Part shown: one piece after another, positions 41,881 to 63,715 of the stretch | Numbering within the stretch: the first letter of the stretch is position 1 | Layout of the letters: every line of letters starts with the position of its first letter | Assembly (NCBI GenBank): GCA_045531455.1 | Contig: JAZSEA010000075.1 | Coordinates: 149,978-213,977, forward strand | DNA length: 64,000 nucleotides | Source of the DNA: Eubacteriales bacterium | GTDB lineage: Bacteria > Bacillota > Clostridia > Oscillospirales > CAG-272 | Direction of reading: 5' to 3' | Position numbers and translations under genes: made by a program | The notes under the pieces: model-generated | Told to the model about the DNA's origin: nothing | Seen by the model: only the letters and a program-made list of their open reading frames with translations | The model's database searches: none

Positions 41881-41898
41881 ATACACAATTTAATAAAA

Positions 41899-42145
41899 GG
41901 CTTTGACGAAGACGGCAAGAAAGAATGTTTTCAGAGAGTTGGCGGTAGGTGCGAGACCAACATCAGGCTTTCGATAGCCCATCACTTCCGAGCCGGGGGA
42001 CCGAAAGTTCAACGAGTAGACTCCTCCCGTGATTACTGCGTTAAGGTATAGGGCTTGCCGGAGCCTGAAGTGCCGTCATATGACGGAATTTGAGTGGTAC
42101 CGCGAATTTGATTCGTCTCAAAGATTATTCTTTGAGACGATTTTT
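41899..42145 (+). promoter_or_regulatory. T-box riboswitch leader 1, proposed specifier AUC (Ile)
   Basis: K-turn base (GGC-UUUGAC-GAAG / CUUC-CGA-GCC), AGAGAG bulge, GGUGCGA distal loop and an AGUAGA...GCGUUA F-box. Stem III spans 42072-42085 and the T-box sequence AAUUUGAGUGGUACCGCG spans 42087-42104. The terminator hairpin at 42113-42140 is followed by UUUUU. Confidence 0.88.
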
Positions 42146-42219
42146 GTTTTATTACTCAACAATCAAAATTACAAGCACCCGGAATTGTGTTATGCCTTTG
42201 CGGCAAGAAAGGATCCATT

Positions 42220-44487
42220 ATGCAAAAGGACACACTTCAGAATCAAAAGCTTCTTGAGATCGCCAACAGAATCAAGGATATGCGCGAAATATCCGGATTT
42301 TCCGAGGAGGAAATGGCGAATCTTACACGAATCGATCTCGACGAGTACAAGAGGTACGAGGCGGGTGCAGAAGATTTCCCCTTCTCTTTTATTCACCGTT
42401 GCTCACAGGTATTCGGAATTGAGATGAACGATCTCCTCGAGGGTCGTTCCCCGAGACTCTCCTCTTATACCATTACAAGAAAAGGTATGGGTCGTGAGAC
42501 TGCACGTGAGGACGGCATAGAGATCTGTAACCTCGCGCCGAACTTTTACGGTAAAATCGCAGAGCCTTATTGGGTAAAATATGAATATTCGGAGAAGCTC
42601 CAGAATCAGCCTATAAATCTCACCACACACAGCGGACAAGAATTCGATATAGTACTCGAGGGATCTCTGAAGATCCAGGTTGGCGAGCACATAGAAGTTC
42701 TCAATGAAGGTGACAGTATCTTCTATAACAGCTCTACCCCGCACGGTATGATCGCTGTCGGCGGACGCGACTGTCTCTTCTGCGCAGTCGTTCTCCCCGG
42801 TGAAGAAACTGCTGAGCCCGAGGTTCGCAAGAGCATCGTTTCCGCCAGACAGACAGATAATCTTCTTATCAATAAATTTATCAAGACAACAGAAAACGCT
42901 GTCGGCACACTCACCGCTATAGATTTTGTTGACGAAAACAAATATAATTTCGCTTTTGATACGGTCGATGCTATTGCTGATAAGTACCCCGACAAGCTCG
43001 CAATGATCCATCTCGACCGCGATGAAAATGAAAGAAGATTCACTTTCGCGGAGATCAAGCGCGGTTCGGCTCAGGTCGCCAACTATTTCAAGTCTCTCGG
43101 AATCAAGCGCGGCGACAGAGTAATCGTCGTTCTCAAGAGACACTATCAGTTCTGGCTTACTATGCTTGCACTCCACAAGCTCGGAGCGATCGCAATTCCC
43201 GCCACCAATCAGCTAGTGTGTCACGACTTCGAGTACAGATTCAAGGCTGCCGGCGTAAGCGCAATAGTTTGCACAACCGACGGCGAAACTGCTGCTCACG
43301 CCGATGAAGCTGCTCGCGACTTCCCCGAGATCAAGAAGATCGCCGTTGGAGTCGAGCGCAAGGGTTGGCATAACTTCAATGAAGAATATCCTCTCTTCAG
43401 CAGTAAATTCCCCAGAACCGAGGACGCCCCCTGCGGAGACGATCCTATGGTTATGTTCTTCACCTCGGGAACAACCGGATATCCCAAGATCGCAACACAT
43501 TCTTATAAATATGCGCTTGGACATTTTGTTACAGCTAAATACTGGCACAATATCTCCCCCGATGGACTTCATCTTACCATTTCCGACACCGGATGGGGCA
43601 AGGCTCTTTGGGGCAAGCTTTACGGGCAGTGGATGTGTGAGGCTGCTGTATTCGTTTACGACTTCGACAGATTCGATGCTTCAAAGATCCTTCCTATGTT
43701 CGCTAAATACAACATCACTACATTCTGCGCGCCTCCTACAATGTACAGAATGTTCATCAAGGAAGATCTCTCAAAATACGACCTTTCCTCGATCAAGCAC
43801 GCTACGATAGCCGGAGAAGCCCTCAACCCCGAGGTCTTCAAGCAATTTGAGAACGCCACGGGACTCAAGCTTATGGAAGGCTTTGGTCAGACAGAGACAA
43901 CTCTTACCGTTGCAAACCTTGTCGGTATGAATCCCAAACCCGGTTCAATGGGTAAGCCTGTTCCCCTCTACGACGTTGATATTGTGTCTCCGGAAGGCGA
44001 CAGCGTTCCGGTCGGTGAAGTTGGCGAAATCGTTGTACACACCGACAAGAAGGTTCCTTGCGGTCTCTTCCTCGGTTACTACAGAGACGAGGAACAGACA
44101 AAAGAAGCTTGGCACGATGGAGTTTACCACACGGGCGACCTCGCTTGGCGAGATGAAGACGGACATTTCTGGTACGTCGGTAGAAAGGATGACGTCATCA
44201 AATCCTCCGGATACCGTATCGGCCCGTTTGAGATCGAAAACGTCATCATGGAACTTCCATACGTTCTCGAGTGCGGTGTATCCGCAGAGCCCGATGAGAT
44301 TCGCGGACAGATCGTTAAGGCAAGCATAGTTCTTACCAAGGGAACCGAGCCAACAGAAGAACTCAAGAAGGCAATTCAGTCCTACGTCAAGAGCCACACC
44401 GCTCCTTACAAGTACCCGAGAAAGATAGTATTCAGAAACGAGCTTCCCAAAACTATCAGCGGAAAGATCCAGCGTAACAAGCTCTGA
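42220..44487 (+). CDS. Three-domain fusion: XRE-type HTH + cupin + AMP-forming (medium/short-chain type) acyl-CoA synthetase, paralog 1
   Basis: Start at MQKDTL (ATG at 42220, AAAGGA RBS). HTH in residues ~10-70, cupin (GDSIFYNSSTPHGM) and adenylate-forming motifs FFTSGTTGYPK, GFGQTETT, YHTGDLAWRDEDGHFWYVGRKDDVIKSSGYRIGPFEIE and PKTISGKIQR. Confidence 0.88.
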   Translation: MQKDTLQNQKLLEIANRIKDMREISGFSEEEMANLTRIDLDEYKRYEAGAEDFPFSFIHRCSQVFGIEMNDLLEGRSPRLSSYTITRKGMGRETAREDGIEICNLAPNFYGKIAEPYWVKYEYSEKLQNQPINLTTHSGQEFDIVLEGSLKIQVGEHIEVLNEGDSIFYNSSTPHGMIAVGGRDCLFCAVVLPGEETAEPEVRKSIVSARQTDNLLINKFIKTTENAVGTLTAIDFVDENKYNFAFDTVDAIADKYPDKLAMIHLDRDENERRFTFAEIKRGSAQVANYFKSLGIKRGDRVIVVLKRHYQFWLTMLALHKLGAIAIPATNQLVCHDFEYRFKAAGVSAIVCTTDGETAAHADEAARDFPEIKKIAVGVERKGWHNFNEEYPLFSSKFPRTEDAPCGDDPMVMFFTSGTTGYPKIATHSYKYALGHFVTAKYWHNISPDGLHLTISDTGWGKALWGKLYGQWMCEAAVFVYDFDRFDASKILPMFAKYNITTFCAPPTMYRMFIKEDLSKYDLSSIKHATIAGEALNPEVFKQFENATGLKLMEGFGQTETTLTVANLVGMNPKPGSMGKPVPLYDVDIVSPEGDSVPVGEVGEIVVHTDKKVPCGLFLGYYRDEEQTKEAWHDGVYHTGDLAWRDEDGHFWYVGRKDDVIKSSGYRIGPFEIENVIMELPYVLECGVSAEPDEIRGQIVKASIVLTKGTEPTEELKKAIQSYVKSHTAPYKYPRKIVFRNELPKTISGKIQRNKL

Positions 44488-44530: not shown

Positions 44531-44559
44531 TTGACAACACAAGTAATTTGTGATATTAT
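44531..44559 (+). promoter_or_regulatory. Sigma-A-type promoter of T-box leader 2
   Basis: TTGACA (44531-44536), a 17-nt spacer, then TGaTATTAT (extended -10, 44551-44559). Confidence 0.72.
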
Positions 44560-44581
44560 TTATTTATATTTTTTAATAAAA

Positions 44582-44836
44582 GGCAATGATAGGGATGTCT
44601 CGATAATAGCCTGCTTCAGAGAGCCGTCGTTTGGTGCGAGACGGTGCAAAAAAATCGAGTTCGTCGCCCTGGAGCCGAGGAAAGGAAAGCTGATCTTTCA
44701 GTCGTAGAGTTCCTCCGTAAAGACTGCGTTAATGTCATAACAAGCGGCGCACACGCGCAATTTGAGTGGTACCGCGGGTATAGAATTCAAGTTCTGCTCG
44801 TCTCAAGATCTATTCTTGGGACGAGCCTGTTTTTTT
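44582..44836 (+). promoter_or_regulatory. T-box riboswitch leader 2, proposed specifier GUC (Val)
   Basis: K-turn base (GGC-AAUGAU-AGGG / CCCU-GGA-GCC), CUCGAU/AUCGAG helix, AGAGAG bulge, GGUGCGA distal loop and a GCGUUA F-box. The T-box sequence CAAUUUGAGUGGUACCGCG spans 44758-44776. The terminator at 44796-44826 is followed by UUUUUUU. Confidence 0.88.
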
Positions 44837-44847
44837 GGAGGTAAATC

Positions 44848-47130
44848 ATGGATAACATTTTTGAAATAGATAAACAGATAAAAGCCATGGCGGGAAGAAT
44901 TTCTGCTTTGCGTGAGATCGAAGGCTATTCTCCCGAATATATGGCTGAGCAGACAGGAGTTTCTGTTTCTGAATATCTCGACTGCGAGTCGGGAAGATCT
45001 GATTTGACGTTTGCATTTCTGTTCAGATGTGCATCCGCGCTCGGCATCGACGTTACAGAGATCATTGAAGGTACCGCTCCCCGACTAAAATCCTATACGC
45101 TCACTCGAAAAGGTAAAGGACAGAGGATCGAGCAAGCACATGGAATGACGTACTACAACATCGCACATTCCTTCGCAAACAGGACCTCGAACCCTCTGTA
45201 CGTTCATTGCGAATATTCTGCTAAAGCAGAAAATTCACCTATCGCCGTAACAACACACGAGGGTCAGGAATGCGATATCGTTATTAAGGGTCGCCTGAAG
45301 GTTCAGGTGGGCGAGCACACAGAGATACTTGAAGAAGGCGACAGCATTTACTATGATAGCTCAACCCCCCACGGTATGATCGCCATTGGCGGTGAAGATT
45401 GCTATTTCTACGCAATAGTGCTTCTTCCCGATGAAAATTCGGAAAAGGCCGCCAACGTCACTCTTGCCGCTACCCCCGCGAAGGTCAGAGACACCGAGAC
45501 ACGAGTATACAGCAAGTTTATTACTACCGAAGAAGATGAAAACGGCGCGCCCGTTTCGATCACATATAAGGGTGAAAACAGCTTCAACTTTGCTTTCGAC
45601 GTAGTTGACACTCTCGGCAGATCAAAACCTGATAAGCTGGCAATTATGCACATAGCCGAAGACGGAACCGAAAAACGCATTACATTCTCACAAGTAAAGC
45701 GTGCTTCCGCTCAATGTGCAAATTACTTTAAATCTCTCGGCATCAAGCGCGGTGACCGTGTAATGCTCGTTCTCAAGCGCAGATATCAGTTCTGGTACGC
45801 TATGATCGGACTTCACAAGCTTGGAGCCATTGCAATTCCCGCAACTAATCAGCTTAAAGAGCATGATTACGAATACAGATTCAACACCGCAGGCGTTAAG
45901 GCAATAATTTGCGTTGATGACGATTACGTTATCGAGCAAGCGGAAGCTGCCCTTGCAAAATGCCCCGATGTATCAGTAAGAATTCTGGTTGGTAAAGAGC
46001 GCGAAGGTTGGAAAAATTTCAACGAGGAATACACACTCTTCAGCAGTCACTTTGACAGAAACGACGATTCTCCCTGCGGCGACGATCCTATGCTTATGTA
46101 TTTCACATCGGGCACATCGGGATATCCCAAGATCGCGCTTCACAATTACAAATACCCCCTCGGTCATTTCCATACCGCGAAATATTGGCATTGCGTAAAT
46201 CCCGACGGTCTGCATCTTACAATATCCGACACCGGATGGGCTAAGGCAATGTGGGGTAAGCTTTACGGTGCTTGGCTCTGCGAGGCGGCAATATTCGTAT
46301 ATGACTTCGACAGATTTGATGCATCCAAGATACTTCCCCTTTTCCGCAAGTACAATATTACCACATTCTGTGCTCCTCCTACGATGTACAGAATGATAAT
46401 CAAGGAAGACCTTTCGAAATACGATCTCAGCTCTATCGAACACGCTACGATCGCGGGCGAGGCTCTCAACCCCGAAGTATTCCGTCAGTTTGAGAAGCAA
46501 ACAGGACTCAAGATCATGGAAGGCTTCGGTCAGAGTGAGACTACTCTTGTCATCGGTAACCTTGTAGGTAAAGCTCACAAGATCGGTTCGATGGGTAAAC
46601 CCGTTCCTACTTTTGACGTTGATCTTGTTGATGCAGACGGCAATTCGGTTGGCATCGGTGACCCCGGCGAGATCGTTATCAATACTAAGAACGGTGCACC
46701 TTGCGGACTCTTCTGCCAGTACTACAACGCCCCCGAAAAGACCGCAGAGGTCTGGCACGACGGTGTTTATCACACAGGCGACCTTGCTTGGCGAGACGAA
46801 GATGGCTTCTTCTGGTACGTTGGCAGAGTTGACGACGTTATCAAGTCTTCCGGATACCGCATCGGTCCGTTCGAGATCGAAAGTGTCATTATGGAACTCC
46901 CCTACGTTCTCGAATGCGGCGTTTCTGCTGCCCCCGACGAGATTCGCGGACAGATCGTCAAGGCAAGCATAGTTCTTACAAAAGACACAGAGCCAACCGA
47001 AGAGCTCAAGAAAGATATTCAGAGCTACGTTAAAAAGCGTACAGCTCCGTATAAATATCCGAGACTCGTCGAGTTCAAGACTGAATTACCCAAAACAACA
47101 AGCGGAAAGATCATCCGCAGCAAACTATAA
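44848..47130 (+). CDS. Three-domain fusion: XRE-type HTH + cupin + AMP-forming acyl-CoA synthetase, paralog 2
   Basis: Same architecture and motifs as paralog 1 (YFTSGTSGYPK, GFGQSETT, YHTGDLAWRDEDGFFWYVGRVDDVIKSSGYRIGPFEIE, PKTTSGKIIR). GGAGG RBS. By eye, high identity to paralog 1 throughout. Confidence 0.9.
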   Translation: MDNIFEIDKQIKAMAGRISALREIEGYSPEYMAEQTGVSVSEYLDCESGRSDLTFAFLFRCASALGIDVTEIIEGTAPRLKSYTLTRKGKGQRIEQAHGMTYYNIAHSFANRTSNPLYVHCEYSAKAENSPIAVTTHEGQECDIVIKGRLKVQVGEHTEILEEGDSIYYDSSTPHGMIAIGGEDCYFYAIVLLPDENSEKAANVTLAATPAKVRDTETRVYSKFITTEEDENGAPVSITYKGENSFNFAFDVVDTLGRSKPDKLAIMHIAEDGTEKRITFSQVKRASAQCANYFKSLGIKRGDRVMLVLKRRYQFWYAMIGLHKLGAIAIPATNQLKEHDYEYRFNTAGVKAIICVDDDYVIEQAEAALAKCPDVSVRILVGKEREGWKNFNEEYTLFSSHFDRNDDSPCGDDPMLMYFTSGTSGYPKIALHNYKYPLGHFHTAKYWHCVNPDGLHLTISDTGWAKAMWGKLYGAWLCEAAIFVYDFDRFDASKILPLFRKYNITTFCAPPTMYRMIIKEDLSKYDLSSIEHATIAGEALNPEVFRQFEKQTGLKIMEGFGQSETTLVIGNLVGKAHKIGSMGKPVPTFDVDLVDADGNSVGIGDPGEIVINTKNGAPCGLFCQYYNAPEKTAEVWHDGVYHTGDLAWRDEDGFFWYVGRVDDVIKSSGYRIGPFEIESVIMELPYVLECGVSAAPDEIRGQIVKASIVLTKDTEPTEELKKDIQSYVKKRTAPYKYPRLVEFKTELPKTTSGKIIRSKL

Positions 47131-47823: not shown

Positions 47824-48030
47824 ATGGCTAAATTAACCTTTAATATTGAAAAATGCAAGGGTTGCGGACTATGCGTTTCTGCTTGTCCCAAGCACCTGCT
47901 TATTGTATCCAAAACAAAGATCAATCAGAAGGGCCACTACGTTGCGGAGATCACAGATATGAGCTCCTGCATCGGATGCGCATTTTGTGCTACAATGTGT
48001 CCCGATTGCATAATTAAGGTTGAAAAGTAA
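47824..48030 (+). CDS. 2-oxoacid:ferredoxin oxidoreductase delta subunit (2x[4Fe-4S] ferredoxin)
   Basis: CKGCGLCVSACP and CIGCAFCATMCP motifs. 68 aa, directly upstream of the alpha subunit. Confidence 0.85.
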   Translation: MAKLTFNIEKCKGCGLCVSACPKHLLIVSKTKINQKGHYVAEITDMSSCIGCAFCATMCPDCIIKVEK

Positions 48031-48043
48031 GGAGGAAACGATT

Positions 48044-49102
48044 ATGTCCGAGAAAGTATTAATGAAGGGCAACGAAGCCATCGCAGAAGCCGCTATAATG
48101 GCGGGATGCCGTCACTATTTCGGCTACCCAATCACCCCCCAGACTGAAATTGCCGCTTATATGGCCAAGAGAATGCCCAAGATAGGCGGAACCTTCCTCC
48201 AGGCTGAAAGTGAAGTTGCCGCTATCAATATGGTAATCGGTGTTGCAGCCGCAGGAAAAAGAGTAATGACCTCGAGCTCCAGCCCCGGAATCTCGCTCAA
48301 GGCAGAAGGAATATCCTATCTCGCCGGTTGCGATCTTCCCGCACTCGTTATCAACGTACAGCGCGGAGGACCCGGTCTCGGCGGAATTCAGCCTTCGCAG
48401 TCGGATTATTTCCAGGCTACAAAGGGCGGCGGTCACGGTGACTACAGAAATATCGTTCTCGCTCCCGCTTCTGTTCAGGAAATGGCTACACTCACGGTAA
48501 AAGGCTTTGATCTTGCCGATAAATACCGTATGGTAGCGATGATCCTTGCAGACGGTACAATGGGTCAGATGATGGAGCCGGTTTCTCTCGACGTTTCGGA
48601 AATTGCTCAGTATGAAAAGCCTTGGGCGGTTACCGGTACAAAACTCGAAAGAAATCACAACATCATCAACTCACTTTCTCTCGTATCCGAAGAGCTTGAA
48701 AGATTCAACATCGAAAGATATAACAAGTACAAGACCGTTGAAGAAAAAGAGGTTCTTGTAGAAGAGTACATGACCGAGGATGCAGACATCGTTCTCGTTG
48801 CTTACGGTATTGCTGCACGCGTATCAAAGAACGCTATTGCTGCTGCCCGCGCGGAAGGCATCAAGGTAGGTCTCGTTCGTCCCATTACTCTCTGGCCCTT
48901 CCCGAAGGCAACACTTGAGAAGCTTTCTCACACTGCAAAAGCATTTATCACGGTTGAGATGTCTATGGGTCAGATGATCGAGGACGTTGAGCTTGCAACG
49001 CGTTGCCGCAAGCCCGTACTCCTTTGCAACCGCTCGGGCGGTATGATCCCCACCCCCGAAGCAGTTCTTGCAAAAATCAAAGAAGCAGGAGGAATTGAAT
49101 AA
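48044..49102 (+). CDS. 2-oxoacid:ferredoxin oxidoreductase alpha subunit (VorB/KorA-type)
   Basis: LMKGNEAIAEAAI..GYPITPQTEI...QAESEVAA motifs. The ATG at 48044 has an AAGGAGGAA RBS. Confidence 0.88.
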   Translation: MSEKVLMKGNEAIAEAAIMAGCRHYFGYPITPQTEIAAYMAKRMPKIGGTFLQAESEVAAINMVIGVAAAGKRVMTSSSSPGISLKAEGISYLAGCDLPALVINVQRGGPGLGGIQPSQSDYFQATKGGGHGDYRNIVLAPASVQEMATLTVKGFDLADKYRMVAMILADGTMGQMMEPVSLDVSEIAQYEKPWAVTGTKLERNHNIINSLSLVSEELERFNIERYNKYKTVEEKEVLVEEYMTEDADIVLVAYGIAARVSKNAIAAARAEGIKVGLVRPITLWPFPKATLEKLSHTAKAFITVEMSMGQMIEDVELATRCRKPVLLCNRSGGMIPTPEAVLAKIKEAGGIE

Positions 49103-49845
49103 TGGTAGTATTTGATAAGCCGCACGCTCTGACAGATGCACCTCTGCATTACTGTCCCGGCTGTACCCACGGTATAATCCACAGGCTCGTTGCAGAAGCT
49201 ATTGACGAGTTCGGAATTGAAGGAAAAACGATCGGCATCGCTCCCGTAGGATGCTCGGTTATGGCATATAATTATTTTGCTTGCGATATGGTTCAGGCTG
49301 CTCACGGTAGAGCTCCCGCTGTTGCTACTGGTGTAAAGCGCGCAAATCCCGATAATATCGTATTTACATATCAAGGTGACGGCGACCTCGCGTCGATCGG
49401 TATGGCAGAAACAGTACACGCCGCTACAAGAGGCGAAAACATCACAATAATATTTGTTAACAATGCGATTTACGGAATGACAGGCGGTCAGATGGCTCCT
49501 ACTTCTCTTCCCGGCCAGGTCACACAGACCTCTCCCTACGGCAGAGATATTTCCACCGCAGGATATCCTATCCGTGTTTGCGAGATGCTCGCACAGCTTG
49601 ACGGTGCCGCATATCTTGAAAGAGTTGCTGTCAACAACGTAAAGAACGTCCGTAAGGCGAAAGCGGCTATCAAAAAAGCTTTCGAGAACCAGATAAACGG
49701 CGTTGGCTTCTCGCTAATCGAGGTTGTTTCCACCTGCCCCACGAACTGGGGACTTACTCCAGAGGCGGCACTTCAGTTCGTTGAAGAAAAGATGATTCCT
49801 TACTATCCGCTCGGCGTATACAAGGACAAGACAAAGGAGGCGTAA
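49102..49845 (+). CDS. 2-oxoacid:ferredoxin oxidoreductase beta subunit (TPP-binding)
   Basis: YCPGCTHG N-terminal cysteines and the GDGD TPP/Mg motif (YQGDGDLASIG). TAATG overlap with alpha. Confidence 0.88.
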   Translation: MVVFDKPHALTDAPLHYCPGCTHGIIHRLVAEAIDEFGIEGKTIGIAPVGCSVMAYNYFACDMVQAAHGRAPAVATGVKRANPDNIVFTYQGDGDLASIGMAETVHAATRGENITIIFVNNAIYGMTGGQMAPTSLPGQVTQTSPYGRDISTAGYPIRVCEMLAQLDGAAYLERVAVNNVKNVRKAKAAIKKAFENQINGVGFSLIEVVSTCPTNWGLTPEAALQFVEEKMIPYYPLGVYKDKTKEA

Positions 49846-49848
49846 ATC

Positions 49849-50385
49849 ATGAAAACAAATCAGATTTTGATTGCAGGTTTTGGCGGTCAGGGCGTCCTCT
49901 TCACAGGTAAAATGCTTGCTTATAAGGGTATGTATGAGGGTAAGGAGGTCAGTTGGCTTCCTTCCTACGGTCCTGAAATGAGAGGCGGTACCGCAAACTG
50001 CAGCGTTATCCTCAGCGATACTCCCGTCGGATCTCCCATCGTATCCAATCCCGACATACTCCTTGTAATGAATCTTCCTTCGCTCGACAAATACGAAAAC
50101 TCTGTTCCTGCAGGCGGAAAGATCTTCGTTGACTCTACCTTCATCGACAGAAAGGTAAACCGCAACGACGTAGACGTTTACTATATTCCCGCAACAAAGA
50201 TGGCTTCCGATGCGGGAGTTCCCACTCTCGCAAATATGATCCTTTTAGGAAAGGTCATTAAGGAAACCGGTGTTGTCAGTCTTGACGGAATGAGAGCTAT
50301 GTTTGAAAAAATCATCTCTGCAAAAAGACAGAATCTTATCGACGTAAATCTCCAGACTATCGAGCTCGGCTACAATTTTCAATAA
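49849..50385 (+). CDS. 2-oxoacid:ferredoxin oxidoreductase gamma subunit
   Basis: ILIAGFGGQGVLFTGK...YGPEMRGG typical of gamma subunits. Confidence 0.88.
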   Translation: MKTNQILIAGFGGQGVLFTGKMLAYKGMYEGKEVSWLPSYGPEMRGGTANCSVILSDTPVGSPIVSNPDILLVMNLPSLDKYENSVPAGGKIFVDSTFIDRKVNRNDVDVYYIPATKMASDAGVPTLANMILLGKVIKETGVVSLDGMRAMFEKIISAKRQNLIDVNLQTIELGYNFQ

Positions 50386-50406: not shown

Positions 50407-51471
50407 ATGGATATCAGAATAGAAAAGATCGCAACACCCAAGCAGAAGCCCGATGAGTCCTCCTTGGGATTCGGTCAGTATTTTACAGATCATATGTTTA
50501 TCATGGATTACACACGCGCAAAGGGATGGCATGATGCAAGAATCGTTCCTTTCGGCAACCTTTCGCTACATCCCGCGTGTACAGTATTCCATTACGGTGC
50601 TGAAATTTTCGAGGGTATGAAGGCTTACAGAACCGCTGACGGCTCCATTCAGCTTTTCAGACCCGAGCAGAACTTTGCCCGTATGAATTCCTCCGCAGAA
50701 AGAATGAGACTGCCTCTTATCGACGAGGAATTTGCTCTTAAGGCACTTACGGAGCTTATCAAGATCGATGCTGATTGGGTTCCTCACGCTCCCGGAACCT
50801 CTCTCTACATCAGACCTTTCCTCTTTGGTGCAGACCCCAAGCTCGGAGTTCACTCGATCGACCGTTCCGTATTTATCATCATTCTCTCCCCTGTAGGATC
50901 TTACTACAAGGAGGGCATTAACCCCGTCAAGATCATGATCGAAACCGAGGATGTTCGCGCCGTAAGAGGCGGAACAGGTTACACCAAGTGCGGCGGTAAC
51001 TACGGTGCCTCCAACAGAGCAGGTGAAAAGGCCGAGCAGGCAGGATACTCGCAGGTCCTTTGGCTCGACGGTGTTGAGAGAAAGTATATCGAAGAAGTCG
51101 GCGCGATGAACGTAATGTTCAAGATCGGCGACGAGATCGTTACTCCTGCCCTTACCGGCTCGATCCTTCCCGGTATCACCAGAAACTCTATTCTCCAGAT
51201 TCTTCGTGATGAGGGGGCTAAGGTTTCCGAAAGACTTCTTTCCATCGACGAGCTTATCGAAGCACTTGACAACGGCACTCTCGAAGAAGGATGGGGATGC
51301 GGAACTGCCGCTGTAGTTTCCCCCATCGGTCAGCTTTTCTACAATGGCAAAACTTATACAATCAATAACGGCAAGATAGGTGCTACAACTCAGAAGCTTT
51401 ACGACACACTCACAGGAATTCAGTGGGGCAAGATTGAAGATACAAGAAATTGGGTATATCCTATCAAATAA
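50407..51471 (+). CDS. ilvE: Branched-chain-amino-acid aminotransferase (fold-type IV, long form)
   Basis: 354 aa. FGQYFTDHMF..., YGAEIFEGMKAYR (catalytic Lys region), VRAVRGGTG..K.GGNY, EEVGAMNVMF and LPGITR motifs. Confidence 0.9.
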   Translation: MDIRIEKIATPKQKPDESSLGFGQYFTDHMFIMDYTRAKGWHDARIVPFGNLSLHPACTVFHYGAEIFEGMKAYRTADGSIQLFRPEQNFARMNSSAERMRLPLIDEEFALKALTELIKIDADWVPHAPGTSLYIRPFLFGADPKLGVHSIDRSVFIIILSPVGSYYKEGINPVKIMIETEDVRAVRGGTGYTKCGGNYGASNRAGEKAEQAGYSQVLWLDGVERKYIEEVGAMNVMFKIGDEIVTPALTGSILPGITRNSILQILRDEGAKVSERLLSIDELIEALDNGTLEEGWGCGTAAVVSPIGQLFYNGKTYTINNGKIGATTQKLYDTLTGIQWGKIEDTRNWVYPIK

Positions 51472-51489: not shown

Positions 51490-52895
51490 ATGAAAAAAAT
51501 ATTCGTCTCTGACTCAACCCTCAGAAATAATTCAGGAGTTTCCGAAACTCCTCTGTCATTCAAGCAACGAATGGAAATTGCCCGTATGCTTGACAGAATG
51601 AAGGTTGACGTAATCGAATTGGCTCCGATCGAGAACGAAAAGATCGACGTTCTTCTCGCAAGAACGATAATCTCATTTCTCAATCATGCCAAAATCGCCA
51701 TACCCGTAGGATTTGACGAAAACGCAATAGATACTGCAGCAAACGCTATAAGTGACGCATCCAAAGCACGTATTCAGATCAGAGTACCTACCTCCCCTGT
51801 ACAAATGGAGTATTTTTGCAGAAGAAAACCTCCGGTTGTACTCGAACTCATCGGAAATCTTGTTAAAAAAGCAGCGCTTACGGGTGCGGAAGTAGAATTC
51901 GTGGCAGAAGATGCTACACGTGCTGAAATGCCTTTCCTCGCAGATGCAATAAATGCTGCTATGATAAACGGCGCAACTGTAATAACTCTTTCCGACGTAG
52001 CTGCAAAAATGATCCCCGATGAATTCTCTTCTTTCGTAAACGAAGTATTCACCGCCGTTCCCGCACTCTCTAACGTCAGAACCGGCGTTGAATGTTCAAA
52101 CGAGTTGGCGCTTGCACTCGCAAACATTGCGGCTGTTCTTAACTCTGATATTTCCGAGGTTAAATGCGCCGCTTGCGCAGACCATATGCTTTCTGTAACG
52201 GATTTCACTAAATTCGTTTCTACACGCGGACTTGAGCTTAACATCGAATCTTCTATAAGAACCACAGAATGCAGAAGGATCATCTCTCAGATCGATTGGA
52301 TACTCAACTCCAAGAAAGAGATTGTTAAAACCGCAGATGACGTTTCCCCCGAAAGCGGTATCATTCTTCGTGCAGGTGATGACATCGGCACGGTTACTGC
52401 CGCTGTTGCAAAGCTTGGATACGAATTATCCGAAGAAGATGCTTCCCGCGTATACGAGGAATTCTGCCGAGTTGCAGAAAAGAAGACAGTAGAAGCTGCG
52501 GAGCTTGACGCCATTGTCGCAAGTGCCGCGCTCCAGGTAGCTCCCACCTATATCCTCAAGAGCTACGTAATCAACAGCGGAAACGTGATTAACGCAACCG
52601 CGCAGGTCACGCTTGAGAAGAATGGCGAGATCATAAACGGTGTCAGCGTAGGCGACGGTCCTATCGATGCCGCGTTCATCGCGATCGAGCAGATACTCGG
52701 ACACCACTATGAGCTTGATGATTTTCAGATCAAAGCAGTTACCGAAGGACGCCAGGCCCTCGGATCTGCTCTCGTTAAGCTTCGCGCAGGTAACAAGATC
52801 TATTCAGGAAACGGTATTTCAACCGATATTATCGGAGCCAGCATACGTGCATACATCAGTGCGCTCAACAAGATCGTATATGAGGAGAATCAGAT

Positions 52896-52899
<4 letters not shown>
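51490..52899 (+). CDS. 2-isopropylmalate-synthase-like protein with degenerate catalytic motifs and an intact LeuA regulatory (dimerisation) domain
   Basis: TIM-barrel region is alignable to LeuA, but RDGEQ reads RNNSG, DTVG reads DVAA and HxH(D) reads ECSNE. The C-terminal GDGPIDAAF...GRQALGS...GISTDIIGASIRAYISALNKI is conserved. Confidence 0.8.
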
Positions 52900-55424
<2,525 letters not shown>

Positions 55425-55512: not shown

Positions 55513-56007
55513 ATGAACGTCAGGCTTGCTCAAATAGATGACCTTAACAAAATACTTGAAATATACGAAAGCGCACGAAGATTTATGCGCGAAGCCGGAA
55601 ACCCCAATCAGTGGGGAGTTGCCAATCCTCCCAGATCACGTACGTTAGAAGATATTGCAACACAAAAGCTTCACGTCGTTACCGAAAACGAAGATATTCT
55701 CGCTGTTTTCTTTTTTGACATTGCCGATGATCCGACTTACGCAAAGATCTATGACGGACAATGGATGAATGAAAAACCTTACGCGGTTATTCACAGAATC
55801 GCCGTTTCGGATGCCGCGAGAGGCAAGGGGGTTGCGGGATTCTGCTTCGGCTATGCTTACAGTAAATGCAAAAATATAAAAATTGATACGCATATAGATA
55901 ATATACCGATGCAAAAGGCTCTTGCAAAACACGGTTTCACTAAATGCGGAACGATATTTCTTGCAAACGGCGATGCGAGAATTGCTTTTCAAAAAACGGA
56001 GGAATAA
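55513..56007 (+). CDS. GNAT-family N-acetyltransferase
   Basis: 164 aa. The acetyl-CoA motif region reads RIAVSDAARGKGVAGF. Confidence 0.8.
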   Translation: MNVRLAQIDDLNKILEIYESARRFMREAGNPNQWGVANPPRSRTLEDIATQKLHVVTENEDILAVFFFDIADDPTYAKIYDGQWMNEKPYAVIHRIAVSDAARGKGVAGFCFGYAYSKCKNIKIDTHIDNIPMQKALAKHGFTKCGTIFLANGDARIAFQKTEE

Positions 56008-56009
56008 CA

Positions 56010-57503
56010 ATGAGTACCAAGAGACCGAACGTCCTGTTCATTCTGACTGATGATCAAAGATATGACACTATTCACGCTTTAGGCAACAATGAGATATCCA
56101 CACCTAATATTGATAGACTTGTTGAGCGCGGAGCTGCTTTTACAAACGCACATATCCCCGGTGGAACAGCTTCCGCAGTATGCATGCCGAGCCGCGCAAT
56201 GATCAATTCATCCCGTACGCTTTTCAATCTTGAACAAAACGGTAAAGAGATTCCTGAATGTGACGTGACAATGTGTCAGGCTTTCAGAGGTGCCGGGTAT
56301 TCCTGCCACGGCATAGGTAAATGGCATAACGGTACTGATAGCTACACAAGATCATTCACAAGCGGTGAAAATATCTTCTTTGGTGGAATGTGGGATCATT
56401 GGAACGTCCCTGTATGTGACTACAGAGCAGACGGAAATTACGATTGCGAGGTTCCGTTTGTCCCGAACTTCTCTGGAAATCAGATCCCCGTTCACGTTCT
56501 CGCCGACAAGATCCATCCCGGTGTCCACTCTACCGAGCTGTTTACAGCAAGTGCCGTTGATTTTATCAATAGCTATGAATCGGAAGAGCCCTTCTTCGTT
56601 TATCTTTCCTATCTTGCGCCGCACGACCCCCGTACGATGCCCGAGAAGTACCGTACAATGTACAAAGCCGAAGACATTACTCTTCCCCAAAACTTTATGG
56701 AAATGCCCGCATTCAGCTTTGGTTGGGCTGACAGAGGTCGTGACGAAGCAGTAGCCTCCTTCCCTCGCAATCCCGATGAGATAAAGCAACATATTGCAGA
56801 CTACTACGCAATGATCAGCCATATTGATGACAACGTCGGAAGGCTTATTGATGCGCTTGAATCAAAGGGCATCCTGGATGACACAATAATTGTCTTCTGC
56901 GGAGATAACGGTCTTGCAATCGGTCAGCACGGACTGATGGGCAAACAGAACGTATATGAGCACAGCGTACATATCCCGCTCCTTGTCAGCGGCCCCCGCA
57001 TTCCCGCGGGACTCAAGCTTGATCAATACGTTTATCTGCTTGACGTATATCCCACGCTCTGCGATCTCTGTAACGTCGAAATTCCTTCCACAGTCGAAGG
57101 AAAGAGTTTCTCCGAAATGTTTACTGACAATGAACTTGTGACGCGTGAGGACCTTTATTTCGCCTTCCAGGCAAGGATACGCGGTATATCTGACGGAAAA
57201 TACAAGCTCATCGAGTATCGAACCGACAGACTGAAAATGACCCAGCTTTTCGATCTTGAAAAAGATCCTTGGGAAACCCATAATTTCTATGACTTCAACG
57301 GCTATGATGAGATCGTGGCAAGACTCCGCAAGCGTATGCTTGAGTACCGAGAGGAATGGAACGAGGACTGTCATATTTACGGCAGACAATTCTGGGAACA
57401 GTACGAAAAGTATGAAGCCGCAGAGGTTCACGGTGTTGACAAGCCTAAAGGAACCTCTATGCTCAATCAGACCAAGGAATGGTCCAAATCTAAGAAGAAC
57501 TAA
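56010..57503 (+). CDS. Cys-type sulfatase (formylglycine-dependent arylsulfatase family)
   Basis: NVLFILTDDQRYD and the CMPSR (C-x-P-x-R) maturation motif. Start at MSTKRPN (56010), 3 nt after the GNAT stop. The track start at 55944 is an extension. Confidence 0.88.
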   Translation: MSTKRPNVLFILTDDQRYDTIHALGNNEISTPNIDRLVERGAAFTNAHIPGGTASAVCMPSRAMINSSRTLFNLEQNGKEIPECDVTMCQAFRGAGYSCHGIGKWHNGTDSYTRSFTSGENIFFGGMWDHWNVPVCDYRADGNYDCEVPFVPNFSGNQIPVHVLADKIHPGVHSTELFTASAVDFINSYESEEPFFVYLSYLAPHDPRTMPEKYRTMYKAEDITLPQNFMEMPAFSFGWADRGRDEAVASFPRNPDEIKQHIADYYAMISHIDDNVGRLIDALESKGILDDTIIVFCGDNGLAIGQHGLMGKQNVYEHSVHIPLLVSGPRIPAGLKLDQYVYLLDVYPTLCDLCNVEIPSTVEGKSFSEMFTDNELVTREDLYFAFQARIRGISDGKYKLIEYRTDRLKMTQLFDLEKDPWETHNFYDFNGYDEIVARLRKRMLEYREEWNEDCHIYGRQFWEQYEKYEAAEVHGVDKPKGTSMLNQTKEWSKSKKN

Positions 57504-63626: not shown

Positions 63627-63715
63627 GGAGAGATATCGAAGTGGTCATAACGGGGCTGACTCGAAATCAGTTTGAGAGCAATCTCACGTGGGTTCGAATC
63701 CCACTCTCTCCGCCA
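63627..63715 (+). tRNA. tRNA-Ser (anticodon CGA)
   Basis: 89 nt. Acceptor GGAGAGA/TCTCTCC, anticodon arm GCTGA-CTCGAAA-TCAGT, long variable arm TGAGA-GCAA-TCTCA, T-arm GTGGG-TTCGAAT-CCCAC and an encoded GCCA end. Confidence 0.92.

Follow-up and report, generated by a model that had tools for sequence, protein, structure and literature searches.

A conserved, apparently non-catalytic relative of 2-isopropylmalate synthase paired with an acyl-CoA ligase fusion: a candidate leucine sensor for branched-chain acid salvage in Clostridia

In a 64,000-nucleotide (nt) stretch of a Clostridia genome (Eubacteriales bacterium, GCA_045531455.1, contig JAZSEA010000075.1, positions 149,978 to 213,977; hereafter the window), we analyzed a gene whose product resembles LeuA, the 2-isopropylmalate synthase (IPMS). 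Judging from its sequence and those of its relatives, this LeuA-like gene is a non-catalytic descendant of a clostridial-type IPMS in which the barrel survives as a scaffold, and its family is conserved and under purifying selection, not decaying. The next gene encodes a fusion of a TIM barrel with an acyl-CoA ligase. On balance, we favor a reading in which the pseudoenzyme gives this ligase, as the isovalerate-activating enzyme, leucine feedback in a salvage pathway from branched-chain fatty acids to branched-chain amino acids (BCAA).

The initial annotation of the window, made without database searches, had described the protein as aligning with LeuA along its length, and the domain searches bear this out. 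Pfam detects HMGL-like (PF00682), the (beta/alpha)8 barrel, at residues 6-226 (E 6.8e-29), and LeuA_dimer (PF08502), the C-terminal allosteric and dimerization domain, at residues 334-462 (E 2e-30, 129 of 131 profile positions). A GGAGA ribosome-binding site lies upstream of the open reading frame. The annotation had also suggested scoring the protein against profile models for LeuA, CimA and NifV and comparing an AlphaFold model with known IPMS structures. All NCBIfam models for LeuA, CimA, NifV and homocitrate synthase score the protein far under their cut-offs, at less than half of each, and the catalytic columns are replaced. The best LeuA model, NF002086, gives 257.7 bits against a cut-off of 532, TIGR00973 gives 230.6 against 598.7, and the scores for the CimA model TIGR00977 (40.4 bits, cut-off 450) and for TIGR02660 (54.4 bits, cut-off 462.9) place the protein outside CimA and NifV.

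The AlphaFold 2 model has a mean pLDDT of 80.7 and a confident, IPMS-like barrel, which superposes on the catalytic domains of bacterial IPMS (3rmj, 3ewb and 3eeg) over about 275 residues with a root-mean-square deviation (rmsd) of 1.9-2.0 Å and target TM-scores of 0.84-0.92. Low pLDDT is found at residues 277-289, in the linker, and at 414-441. The latter stretch includes the loop with which IPMS covers leucine at its dimer interface (PMC11057210), and low confidence is expected there because the model is a monomer without ligand. The top Foldseek match of the barrel is the plant methylthioalkylmalate synthase MAM (6e1j, E 7.9e-23), another LeuA descendant recruited to a new role. MAM, however, kept catalysis and lost the regulatory domain, and the LeuA-like family did the reverse. 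The regulatory domain alone has a single match in PDB sequence space, the LiCMS domain 3f6g (E 0.01).

To place the catalytic motifs we used residue-level alignments to the three solved bacterial IPMS (3rmj, 3eeg and 3ewb) and to E. coli LeuA (b0074). These alignments agree with the initial annotation that LRDGEQ reads LRNNSG, PDTVG reads SDVAA, the HxHxDLG motif reads ECSNELA and GIGERAGN is gone (Table 1). The divalent-metal site, which in IPMS is built from the RDGEQ aspartate and the HxH histidine pair, is missing, with N13, E201 and S203 in its place. Directly before the shorter segment that replaces GxGERAGN stands Lys225, which is invariant in the family and corresponds to a glutamate in LeuA. 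Two further losses had not been listed by the initial annotation. The histidine of TSPxH is replaced by glutamine (TSPVQ), and about 30 residues of accessory subdomain I are deleted relative to E. coli LeuA (AFAHSSGIHQDG...). The Pfam scan of the LeuA-like protein likewise did not find HCS_D2 (PF22617), a domain that the same comparison detected in a genuine clostridial LeuA (P0248). In MtuIPMS, subdomain I carries a histidine and a tyrosine needed for catalysis and allostery (PMC9860122).

These losses extend through the family and do not look like a quirk of one gene, which supports the pseudoenzyme status that had been proposed. Across 25 non-redundant members the metal-ligand columns are variable: the aspartate is replaced by E, Q, N, Y or I, the first histidine by Q, E, L, S or C, and the second by S, N, E, A or I. 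Neither histidine column contains a histidine in any of the 25. The initial annotation had allowed that a careful alignment might find the ligands conserved at shifted positions; no shifted alignment restores them. RDGEQ is absent from all the sequences that contain the N-terminus among the best 120 homologues, and the catalytic motifs are likewise absent from distant family members (32-34% identity). The equivalents of the substrate-binding R80 and the catalytic E218 of MtuIPMS are R12 and E140 in the window protein; within the family the arginine column holds R or K in 19/25 members, and the glutamate column holds E in 9, D in 7 and other residues in 9. Mutation of residues known to be needed in this superfamily abolishes MtuIPMS activity (PMC10464499).

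The C-terminal motifs noted at the outset are all retained: GDGPIDAAF at residues 388-396 (52651-52677), GRQALG at 420-425 (52747-52764) and GISTDIIGASIRAY at 442-455 (52813-52854). In the family alignment the GDGPID loop, the GxxAxG loop and the start of the STDIIGAS helix are invariant or nearly so, and the ligand-loop positions G388, G390, D393, G420, G425, S444, T445 and D446 are invariant; G425 corresponds to the site of the feedback-resistant E. coli mutation G462D. The dimer interface of MtuIPMS takes up leucine between two helix N-termini, and a loop above the ligand shuts once it is bound (PMC11057210). Compared pair by pair, the 25 non-redundant members average 75% identity over the regulatory domain, 48% over the barrel and 40% over the linker, and selection on the LeuA-like protein thus appears to be focused on the C-terminal leucine-binding and dimerization domain.

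At least 598 species-representative genomes encode a relative of the LeuA-like protein. Among the matches listed, most carriers are Clostridia of the gut and rumen that have not been cultured (Acutalibacteraceae, Oscillospiraceae, Lachnospiraceae and Christensenellales), and a few lie outside the Clostridia (Eggerthellaceae/Coriobacteriaceae and Synergistaceae). A search of 1.84 billion cluster representatives gave about 120 full-length clusters (at 50% identity), down to 32% identity, with genuine LeuAs (500-516 aa) appearing only at lower scores. Nearly all of the best 120 homologues are about 470 aa long. We conclude that the family is not decaying because its length is constant, it is found in at least 598 species, the 37-sequence family alignment has 64 invariant columns and the barrel is confidently modeled as IPMS-like. 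Some matches join a regulatory domain (60-72% identical) to fragments of 7TM-HD/7TM, DctM, MBOAT or MFS membrane proteins (P0249, P0269, P0244 and P0232); we set these aside as probable chimeric contigs or gene-calling artefacts. Databases label family members as hypothetical, as "IPMS regulatory domain-containing" or, in one source and for one orthologue, wrongly as "2-isopropylmalate synthase".

The ligase fusion had been suggested as the partner of the LeuA-like protein, and its genomic context strengthens that suggestion. The fusion, in which Pfam finds AP_endonuc_2, AMP-binding and AMP-binding_C domains, is encoded by the next gene in 81/86 related loci; that is every locus with enough downstream DNA, since the five remaining contigs stop no more than about 400 nt past the LeuA-like gene. 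In the reverse direction, the LeuA-like gene was directly upstream in 5/5 contexts seeded from the TIM domain. The reported ATGA overlap is present at 52896-52899, where the TGA stop of the LeuA-like gene and the ATG of the next gene share letters. At 89 loci, the stop-to-start junction is an overlap in 27 (ATGA in 23 of them), a gap of 0-20 nt in 51 and a larger gap in 11, so that the genes overlap or lie within 20 nt in 78/89. The two proteins are made together, often with translational coupling. No natural fusion of a LeuA-like protein to the ligase was found among the best 150 cluster representatives, all of which are at most 521 aa. Apparent stand-alone TIM proteins proved to be fusions broken by frameshifts in error-prone assemblies, and in each case a LeuA-like gene still comes first.

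Within the fusion, the ligase domain keeps its ANL motifs and, with 78% identity among family members, is unusually conserved; the TIM domain is 47% identical. The E/D/H/E ligands of the fused TIM barrel are intact in the window; elsewhere we see D170N in 17/65, E239V in 13/65 and E142K/Q in 8/65, and this domain, too, may be on its way to losing catalysis. Among solved proteins the nearest to it is Art22, and a literature search on that name found nothing relevant. In a mirror-tree comparison, the fused TIM barrel of the ligase is the partner whose distances correlate best with those of the dead barrel (r 0.80; partial r 0.73 with the ligase domain controlled for), which hints at barrel-to-barrel contact.

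The amino acid label of the gene pair comes from T-box leaders, whose specifier codons we read from Rfam alignments (RF00230). A separate T-box precedes the LeuA-like/TIM-ligase pair by about 100 nt in most other genomes, and its specifier is CUC or CUG (Leu) in 63/63 loci, 59 read by script and the other four in the alignment. The leucine reading frame is supported because the codon varies only at the wobble position. The T-boxes of the sister ligases carry AUC (Ile) in 25 cases and GUA or GUC (Val) in 20. These leaders put the pair under induction by uncharged tRNA-Leu, that is, by leucine shortage. The initial annotation had left the sensed amino acid as leucine or another BCAA; the specifier of the pair's own T-box, found at all 63 orthologous loci, narrows this to leucine.

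Gene order suggests that the pair is one arm of a larger system. In the window, the operon runs T-box, acyl-CoA synthetase (ACS2), a P-loop protein (P224), ferredoxin, VorABC, IlvE, LeuA-like, TIM-ligase fusion and a GNAT acetyltransferase. A ligase, a 2-oxoisovalerate:ferredoxin oxidoreductase (VOR), a ferredoxin and a BCAA aminotransferase are thus encoded together, and the cluster recurs in about 33 loci. In L039 the genes are divided among three leaders: an Ile T-box before a ligase, a Val T-box before ligase-P224-ferredoxin-VorABC-IlvE, and a Leu T-box before LeuA-like-TIM-ligase. In L060 a single Leu T-box drives P224-ferredoxin-VorABC-IlvE-LeuA-like-TIM-ligase, and the fusion is the only ligase there; this operon looks like a self-contained isovalerate-to-leucine unit. 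We infer that the gene pair is the leucine arm of a three-arm salvage system that converts branched-chain fatty acids to BCAA. In the lineage of the window, as in L006 and L020, the Leu T-box was lost and the pair lies behind Val-controlled genes.

Ruminococci and their relatives require isovalerate, isobutyrate and 2-methylbutyrate, as has been known since the 1960s. Rumen bacteria carboxylate these acids to leucine, valine and isoleucine, respectively (Allison and co-workers, cited in PMC7356843). The chemistry that we assign to the operon, namely activation, ferredoxin-dependent reductive carboxylation and transamination, would match these pathways; the classical work, as cited there, assigned no genes or regulatory subunits to them. 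MbcS of S. aureus activates branched short-chain acids (PMC10026030, PMC11167679), and the two other ligases of the window are MbcS relatives. MbcS differs in that it feeds lipid synthesis and has no helix-turn-helix (HTH)-cupin, TIM or LeuA-like accessory.

In the mechanism that we propose, each arm would start with a ligase that activates its acid; the ferredoxin-dependent 2-oxoisovalerate oxidoreductase would then carboxylate the product reductively and IlvE would transaminate it, with isovalerate giving leucine, 2-methylbutyrate isoleucine and isobutyrate valine. The pseudoenzyme dimer would bind leucine at the interface between its regulatory domains and pass the signal to the ligase, probably through the dead barrel contacting the fused TIM barrel, so that an ample supply of leucine would slow the activation of isovalerate. 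A salvage pathway would in this way have acquired, for its own first enzyme, the feedback module that belongs to the first enzyme of de novo synthesis. In Firmicutes ilv-leu operons, LeuA feedback complements T-box control, and leucine feedback on the ligase would complement the transcriptional T-box control here. We infer that leucine is bound, that the two proteins form a complex, which way regulation runs and that the substrate is isovalerate; this is the most economical reading of the loss of catalysis, the selection on the allosteric domain, the obligatory co-expression with one particular ligase and the induction by uncharged tRNA-Leu. More tentatively, the full picture may be that Clostridia of the gut and rumen, together with some Coriobacteriia and Synergistia, possess a three-arm, T-box-partitioned salvage system in which a dead LeuA serves as the leucine sensor by docking barrel-to-barrel on the partly degenerate TIM domain of an isovalerate-CoA ligase.

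Several observations weigh against leucine feedback on an isovalerate ligase. The LeuA-like gene of the window is under a Val (GUC) T-box and not a Leu one; a Leu T-box directly upstream is absent in the window and present in orthologues. The best NCBIfam model for the partner ligase, PRK12583 (a fatty-acid-CoA ligase family), scores 698 bits, under its cut-off of 832, and the solved structures nearest to it, those of moderately similar feruloyl-, malonyl- and fatty-acyl-CoA synthetases, belong to enzymes that act on unrelated acids. The mirror-tree signal is largely phylogeny, and VorA correlates about equally in an 11-locus subset. Residues D8, T10, E107, D141, R144, D169 and K225, at the C-terminal ends of the barrel beta-strands, are invariant, so the old pocket may still bind something. 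Finally, two extra TIM-type components, the fused barrel with intact E/D/H/E ligands and an Amidohydro_2 protein, have no role in a scheme of ligase plus sensor and could point to additional chemistry. The Amidohydro_2 (PF04909) gene, encoding 270 aa, lies directly 3' of the ligase fusion in 34 loci (for example, L001 13950-14759 and L089 10536-11345) but the window and over half of the loci lack it; among solved structures its product comes closest to the uncharacterised BB4693 (3irs).

Rather unlikely, in our view, is that the ligase depends on the LeuA-like protein for structure or activation with no feedback sensing, the protein being either MbtH-like or a scaffold joining the ligase to VOR and IlvE, its C-terminal domain having been kept for dimerization or docking. 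Such a role would suit the invariant synteny and coupling and the way in which the dead and the fused TIM barrel co-vary in their distances; PF08502 doubles as a dimerization domain, and the Leu T-box could already supply regulation. However, the most conserved residues are the ligand loops and helix N-termini of the LeuA allosteric site and go beyond interface positions (PMC11057210), and a mere dimerizer would not need invariant GDGPID and GxxAxG motifs. We consider it improbable that the protein is still an enzyme with new, metal-independent chemistry, using K225, E107, D141 and R144 as catalytic residues and acting with the fused TIM and Amidohydro_2 proteins on a leucine-related substrate. 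It is true that the invariant polar residues stand at the beta-strand C-termini, where TIM barrels have their active centers, that the barrel is still 48% identical across the family and that two further components of metal-hydrolase or isomerase type accompany it. Yet the metal ligands, the glutamate equivalent to MtuIPMS E218 and the histidine and tyrosine of subdomain I are all lost or variable (compare PMC10464499), the arginine column is R or K in only 19/25 members, the Amidohydro_2 gene is missing from most loci including this one, and the ligands of the fused TIM barrel are substituted in about one quarter of orthologues.

It seems to us distinctly improbable that the ligand sensed is not leucine but one of the amino acids isoleucine and valine, by analogy with citramalate synthase, or else a 2-oxoacid or acyl-CoA lodged in what is left of the barrel pocket. 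The regulatory-domain loop does align with that of the isoleucine-binding LiCMS domain 3f6g (GDGGYDA; E 0.01), the position that binds the substrate carboxylate keeps R or K in those 19 members, and the window gene lies in a Val T-box operon. The specifier of the pair's own T-box nevertheless reads Leu at every one of the 63 loci, and by the scores given above the closest genuine enzymes are LeuA (257.7 bits), not CimA (40.4 bits). A decaying pseudogene or a mis-aligned genuine LeuA is effectively excluded by the conservation data: one database source labels an orthologue "2-isopropylmalate synthase", but the frame is intact, the length constant over at least 598 species, 64 columns are invariant, three independent alignments agree on the motif positions and the model scores are less than half of every cut-off. 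Leucine feedback on the ligase remains the reading that we prefer.

Compared with genuine LeuA/IPMS (3rmj and E. coli b0074), the family shares fold and domain order, with a barrel at an rmsd of about 2 Å, a helical subdomain II and a C-terminal allosteric domain, as well as the ligand-loop motifs GxGPxDA, GxxAxG and the (S/A)TDI helix start. It differs in having lost the Asp/His/His site, the glutamate and glutamine of RDGEQ, PDTVG, GxGERAGN and subdomain I, and in that the gene lies outside a leu operon and is always paired with the TIM-ligase fusion. The closest known logic may be that of HisZ, a dead paralogue of histidyl-tRNA synthetase that serves as the regulatory subunit of the HisG(S) ATP-phosphoribosyltransferase and whose complex and allostery have been demonstrated experimentally. 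There too, by analogy, a dead paralogue of an amino-acid-binding enzyme would give end-product feedback to the first enzyme of a pathway, although the folds and the pathway are unrelated and our proposed complex and allostery would involve an ANL-family salvage ligase. IlvH and IlvN are small ACT-domain regulatory subunits of acetohydroxyacid synthase that bind BCAA and feedback-regulate it. They would resemble the LeuA-like protein in being separate BCAA-binding polypeptides that regulate a committing enzyme of BCAA supply, with a gene adjoining that of the catalytic subunit, but they do not derive from an enzyme of the same pathway and have no dead catalytic barrel.

Our literature searches found no description of the LeuA-like family and nothing that joins isopropylmalate synthase with the term pseudoenzyme. 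The candidates that they returned were unrelated cases: SAUSA300_0879 ("leuA-like", S. aureus), which lies in a different operon, the LeuA homologues of the fragin and pvf systems, and plant IPMS-like genes. Pseudoenzyme regulatory subunits are already known; what would be new is an IPMS-derived pseudoenzyme tied to an ANL ligase in a T-box-partitioned salvage system. If our reading is correct, this would be the first IPMS-derived pseudoenzyme, the first ANL-family ligase feedback-controlled by a separate amino-acid-binding subunit, a new form of regulation of adenylate-forming ligases, and a clear example of a pseudoenzyme arising by loss of catalysis with retention of an allosteric domain. 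In practical terms, the label "2-isopropylmalate synthase" leads metabolic reconstructions to count a step of de novo leucine synthesis for hundreds of species of the gut and rumen, a step that this protein cannot carry out. The locus also offers, for each arm of the rumen branched-chain acid pathway, candidate genes marked by amino-acid-specific riboswitches, and regulation of the pathway becomes directly testable through the T-box-labeled genes. The conserved stand-alone regulatory module may also be a scaffold for a leucine biosensor (compare PMC13381585).

Table 1. Coordinates of the LeuA-like gene, its domains and replaced motifs, and the neighboring features in the window.
Feature	Position	Strand	Evidence or remark
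T-box leader, specifier AUC (Ile)	41894-42123	+	Rfam 88.8 bits, E 4e-20, local search, just under gathering score; promoter and terminator sites
HTH-cupin-acyl-CoA synthetase ACS1, putative 2-methylbutyrate (Ile) arm	42187-44487	+	Follows Ile T-box; unit 41894..44487
T-box leader, specifier GUC (Val)	44577..44808	+	RF00230 96.3 bits, gathering score 93; leads operon from ACS2 to ligase fusion
HTH (XRE)-cupin-acyl-CoA synthetase fusion ACS2, MbcS-like, putative isobutyrate (Val) arm	44848..47130	+	Pfam; Val T-boxes precede orthologues
P-loop protein P224, 224 aa	47137-47811	+	Weak CbiA/ParA-like matches only; no curated family
2x[4Fe-4S] ferredoxin	47824-48030	+	
2-oxoisovalerate:ferredoxin oxidoreductase subunits	48020-49102, 49102-49845, 49849-50385	+	VorB model NF005507 544.7 bits, cut-off 399
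Branched-chain amino acid aminotransferase IlvE	50407..51471	+	NF009897 477 bits, cut-off 307; 18 nt 5' of LeuA-like gene
LeuA-like pseudoenzyme gene (predicted)	51490..52899	+	469 aa; dead TIM barrel, helical linker, LeuA regulatory domain; Pfam HMGL-like and LeuA_dimer
Degenerate DRE-TIM (HMGL-like) barrel	51490..52239	+	Residues 1-250; IPMS superposition
LRNNSG replacing LRDGEQ	51520..51537	+	Residues 11-16; metal-ligand Asp to Asn13; Glu and Gln lost
SDVAA replacing PDTVG	51991..52005	+	Residues 168-172; Pro, Thr, Val and Gly lost; Asp kept, family-invariant
ECSNELA replacing HxHxDLG	52090..52110	+	Residues 201-207; both metal-ligand His lost (Glu201, Ser203)
CAACADHMLS, shorter segment in place of GxGERAGN (GIGERAGN)	52165..52194	+	Residues 226-235; alignments
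Helical linker, equivalent of LeuA accessory subdomain II; subdomain I deleted	52240..52488	+	Alignment gap relative to E. coli LeuA
LeuA allosteric/dimerization domain, best-conserved part of the protein	52489..52896	+	PF08502, family conservation
Partner fusion gene: xylose isomerase-like TIM barrel (residues 1-260, 52896-53675) and AMP-forming acyl-CoA ligase (~53796-55421)	52896..55424	+	
GNAT acetyltransferase	55513..56007	+	Pfam Acetyltransf_1; directly after ligase fusion, also in L006; system membership uncertain

The remaining genes of the operon and its surroundings are summarized in Table 1. The Val T-box comes with a promoter-like site (44531-44559) and a terminator-like hairpin (44796-44826). 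The HTH-cupin ligases score 438-446 bits against the NCBIfam MbcS model (ACS2 438), whose cut-off is 850. In both of these paralogues an MbcS-like synthetase carries an XRE-type HTH and a cupin at its N-terminus; such a DNA-binding and small-molecule-binding module is unusual on an enzyme, and these domains may be the isoleucine and valine counterparts of the proposed LeuA-like sensor. P224 is always directly 5' of the ferredoxin and VorABC genes (33 related loci) and may be a maturation or accessory ATPase for the oxidoreductase. In L004/L005 (15242-18769), a single-chain, 1175-aa PFOR-type oxidoreductase follows the pair and IlvE; because it replaces the four-subunit VOR, the association with an oxidoreductase recurs there in a different form.

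AcuA and Pat acetylate the catalytic lysine of acyl-CoA synthetases, and by analogy the GNAT protein encoded after the ligase fusion could do the same. The open reading frame at 55944-57503 that follows it looks like a sulfatase by its N-terminal LFILTDDQ motif; its listed start overlaps the GNAT gene, and the real start is probably a methionine near 56010. Near the end of the window, at 63627-63712, lies a tRNA gene of 86 nt (Rfam tRNA, 54.7 bits), whose variable arm is long.

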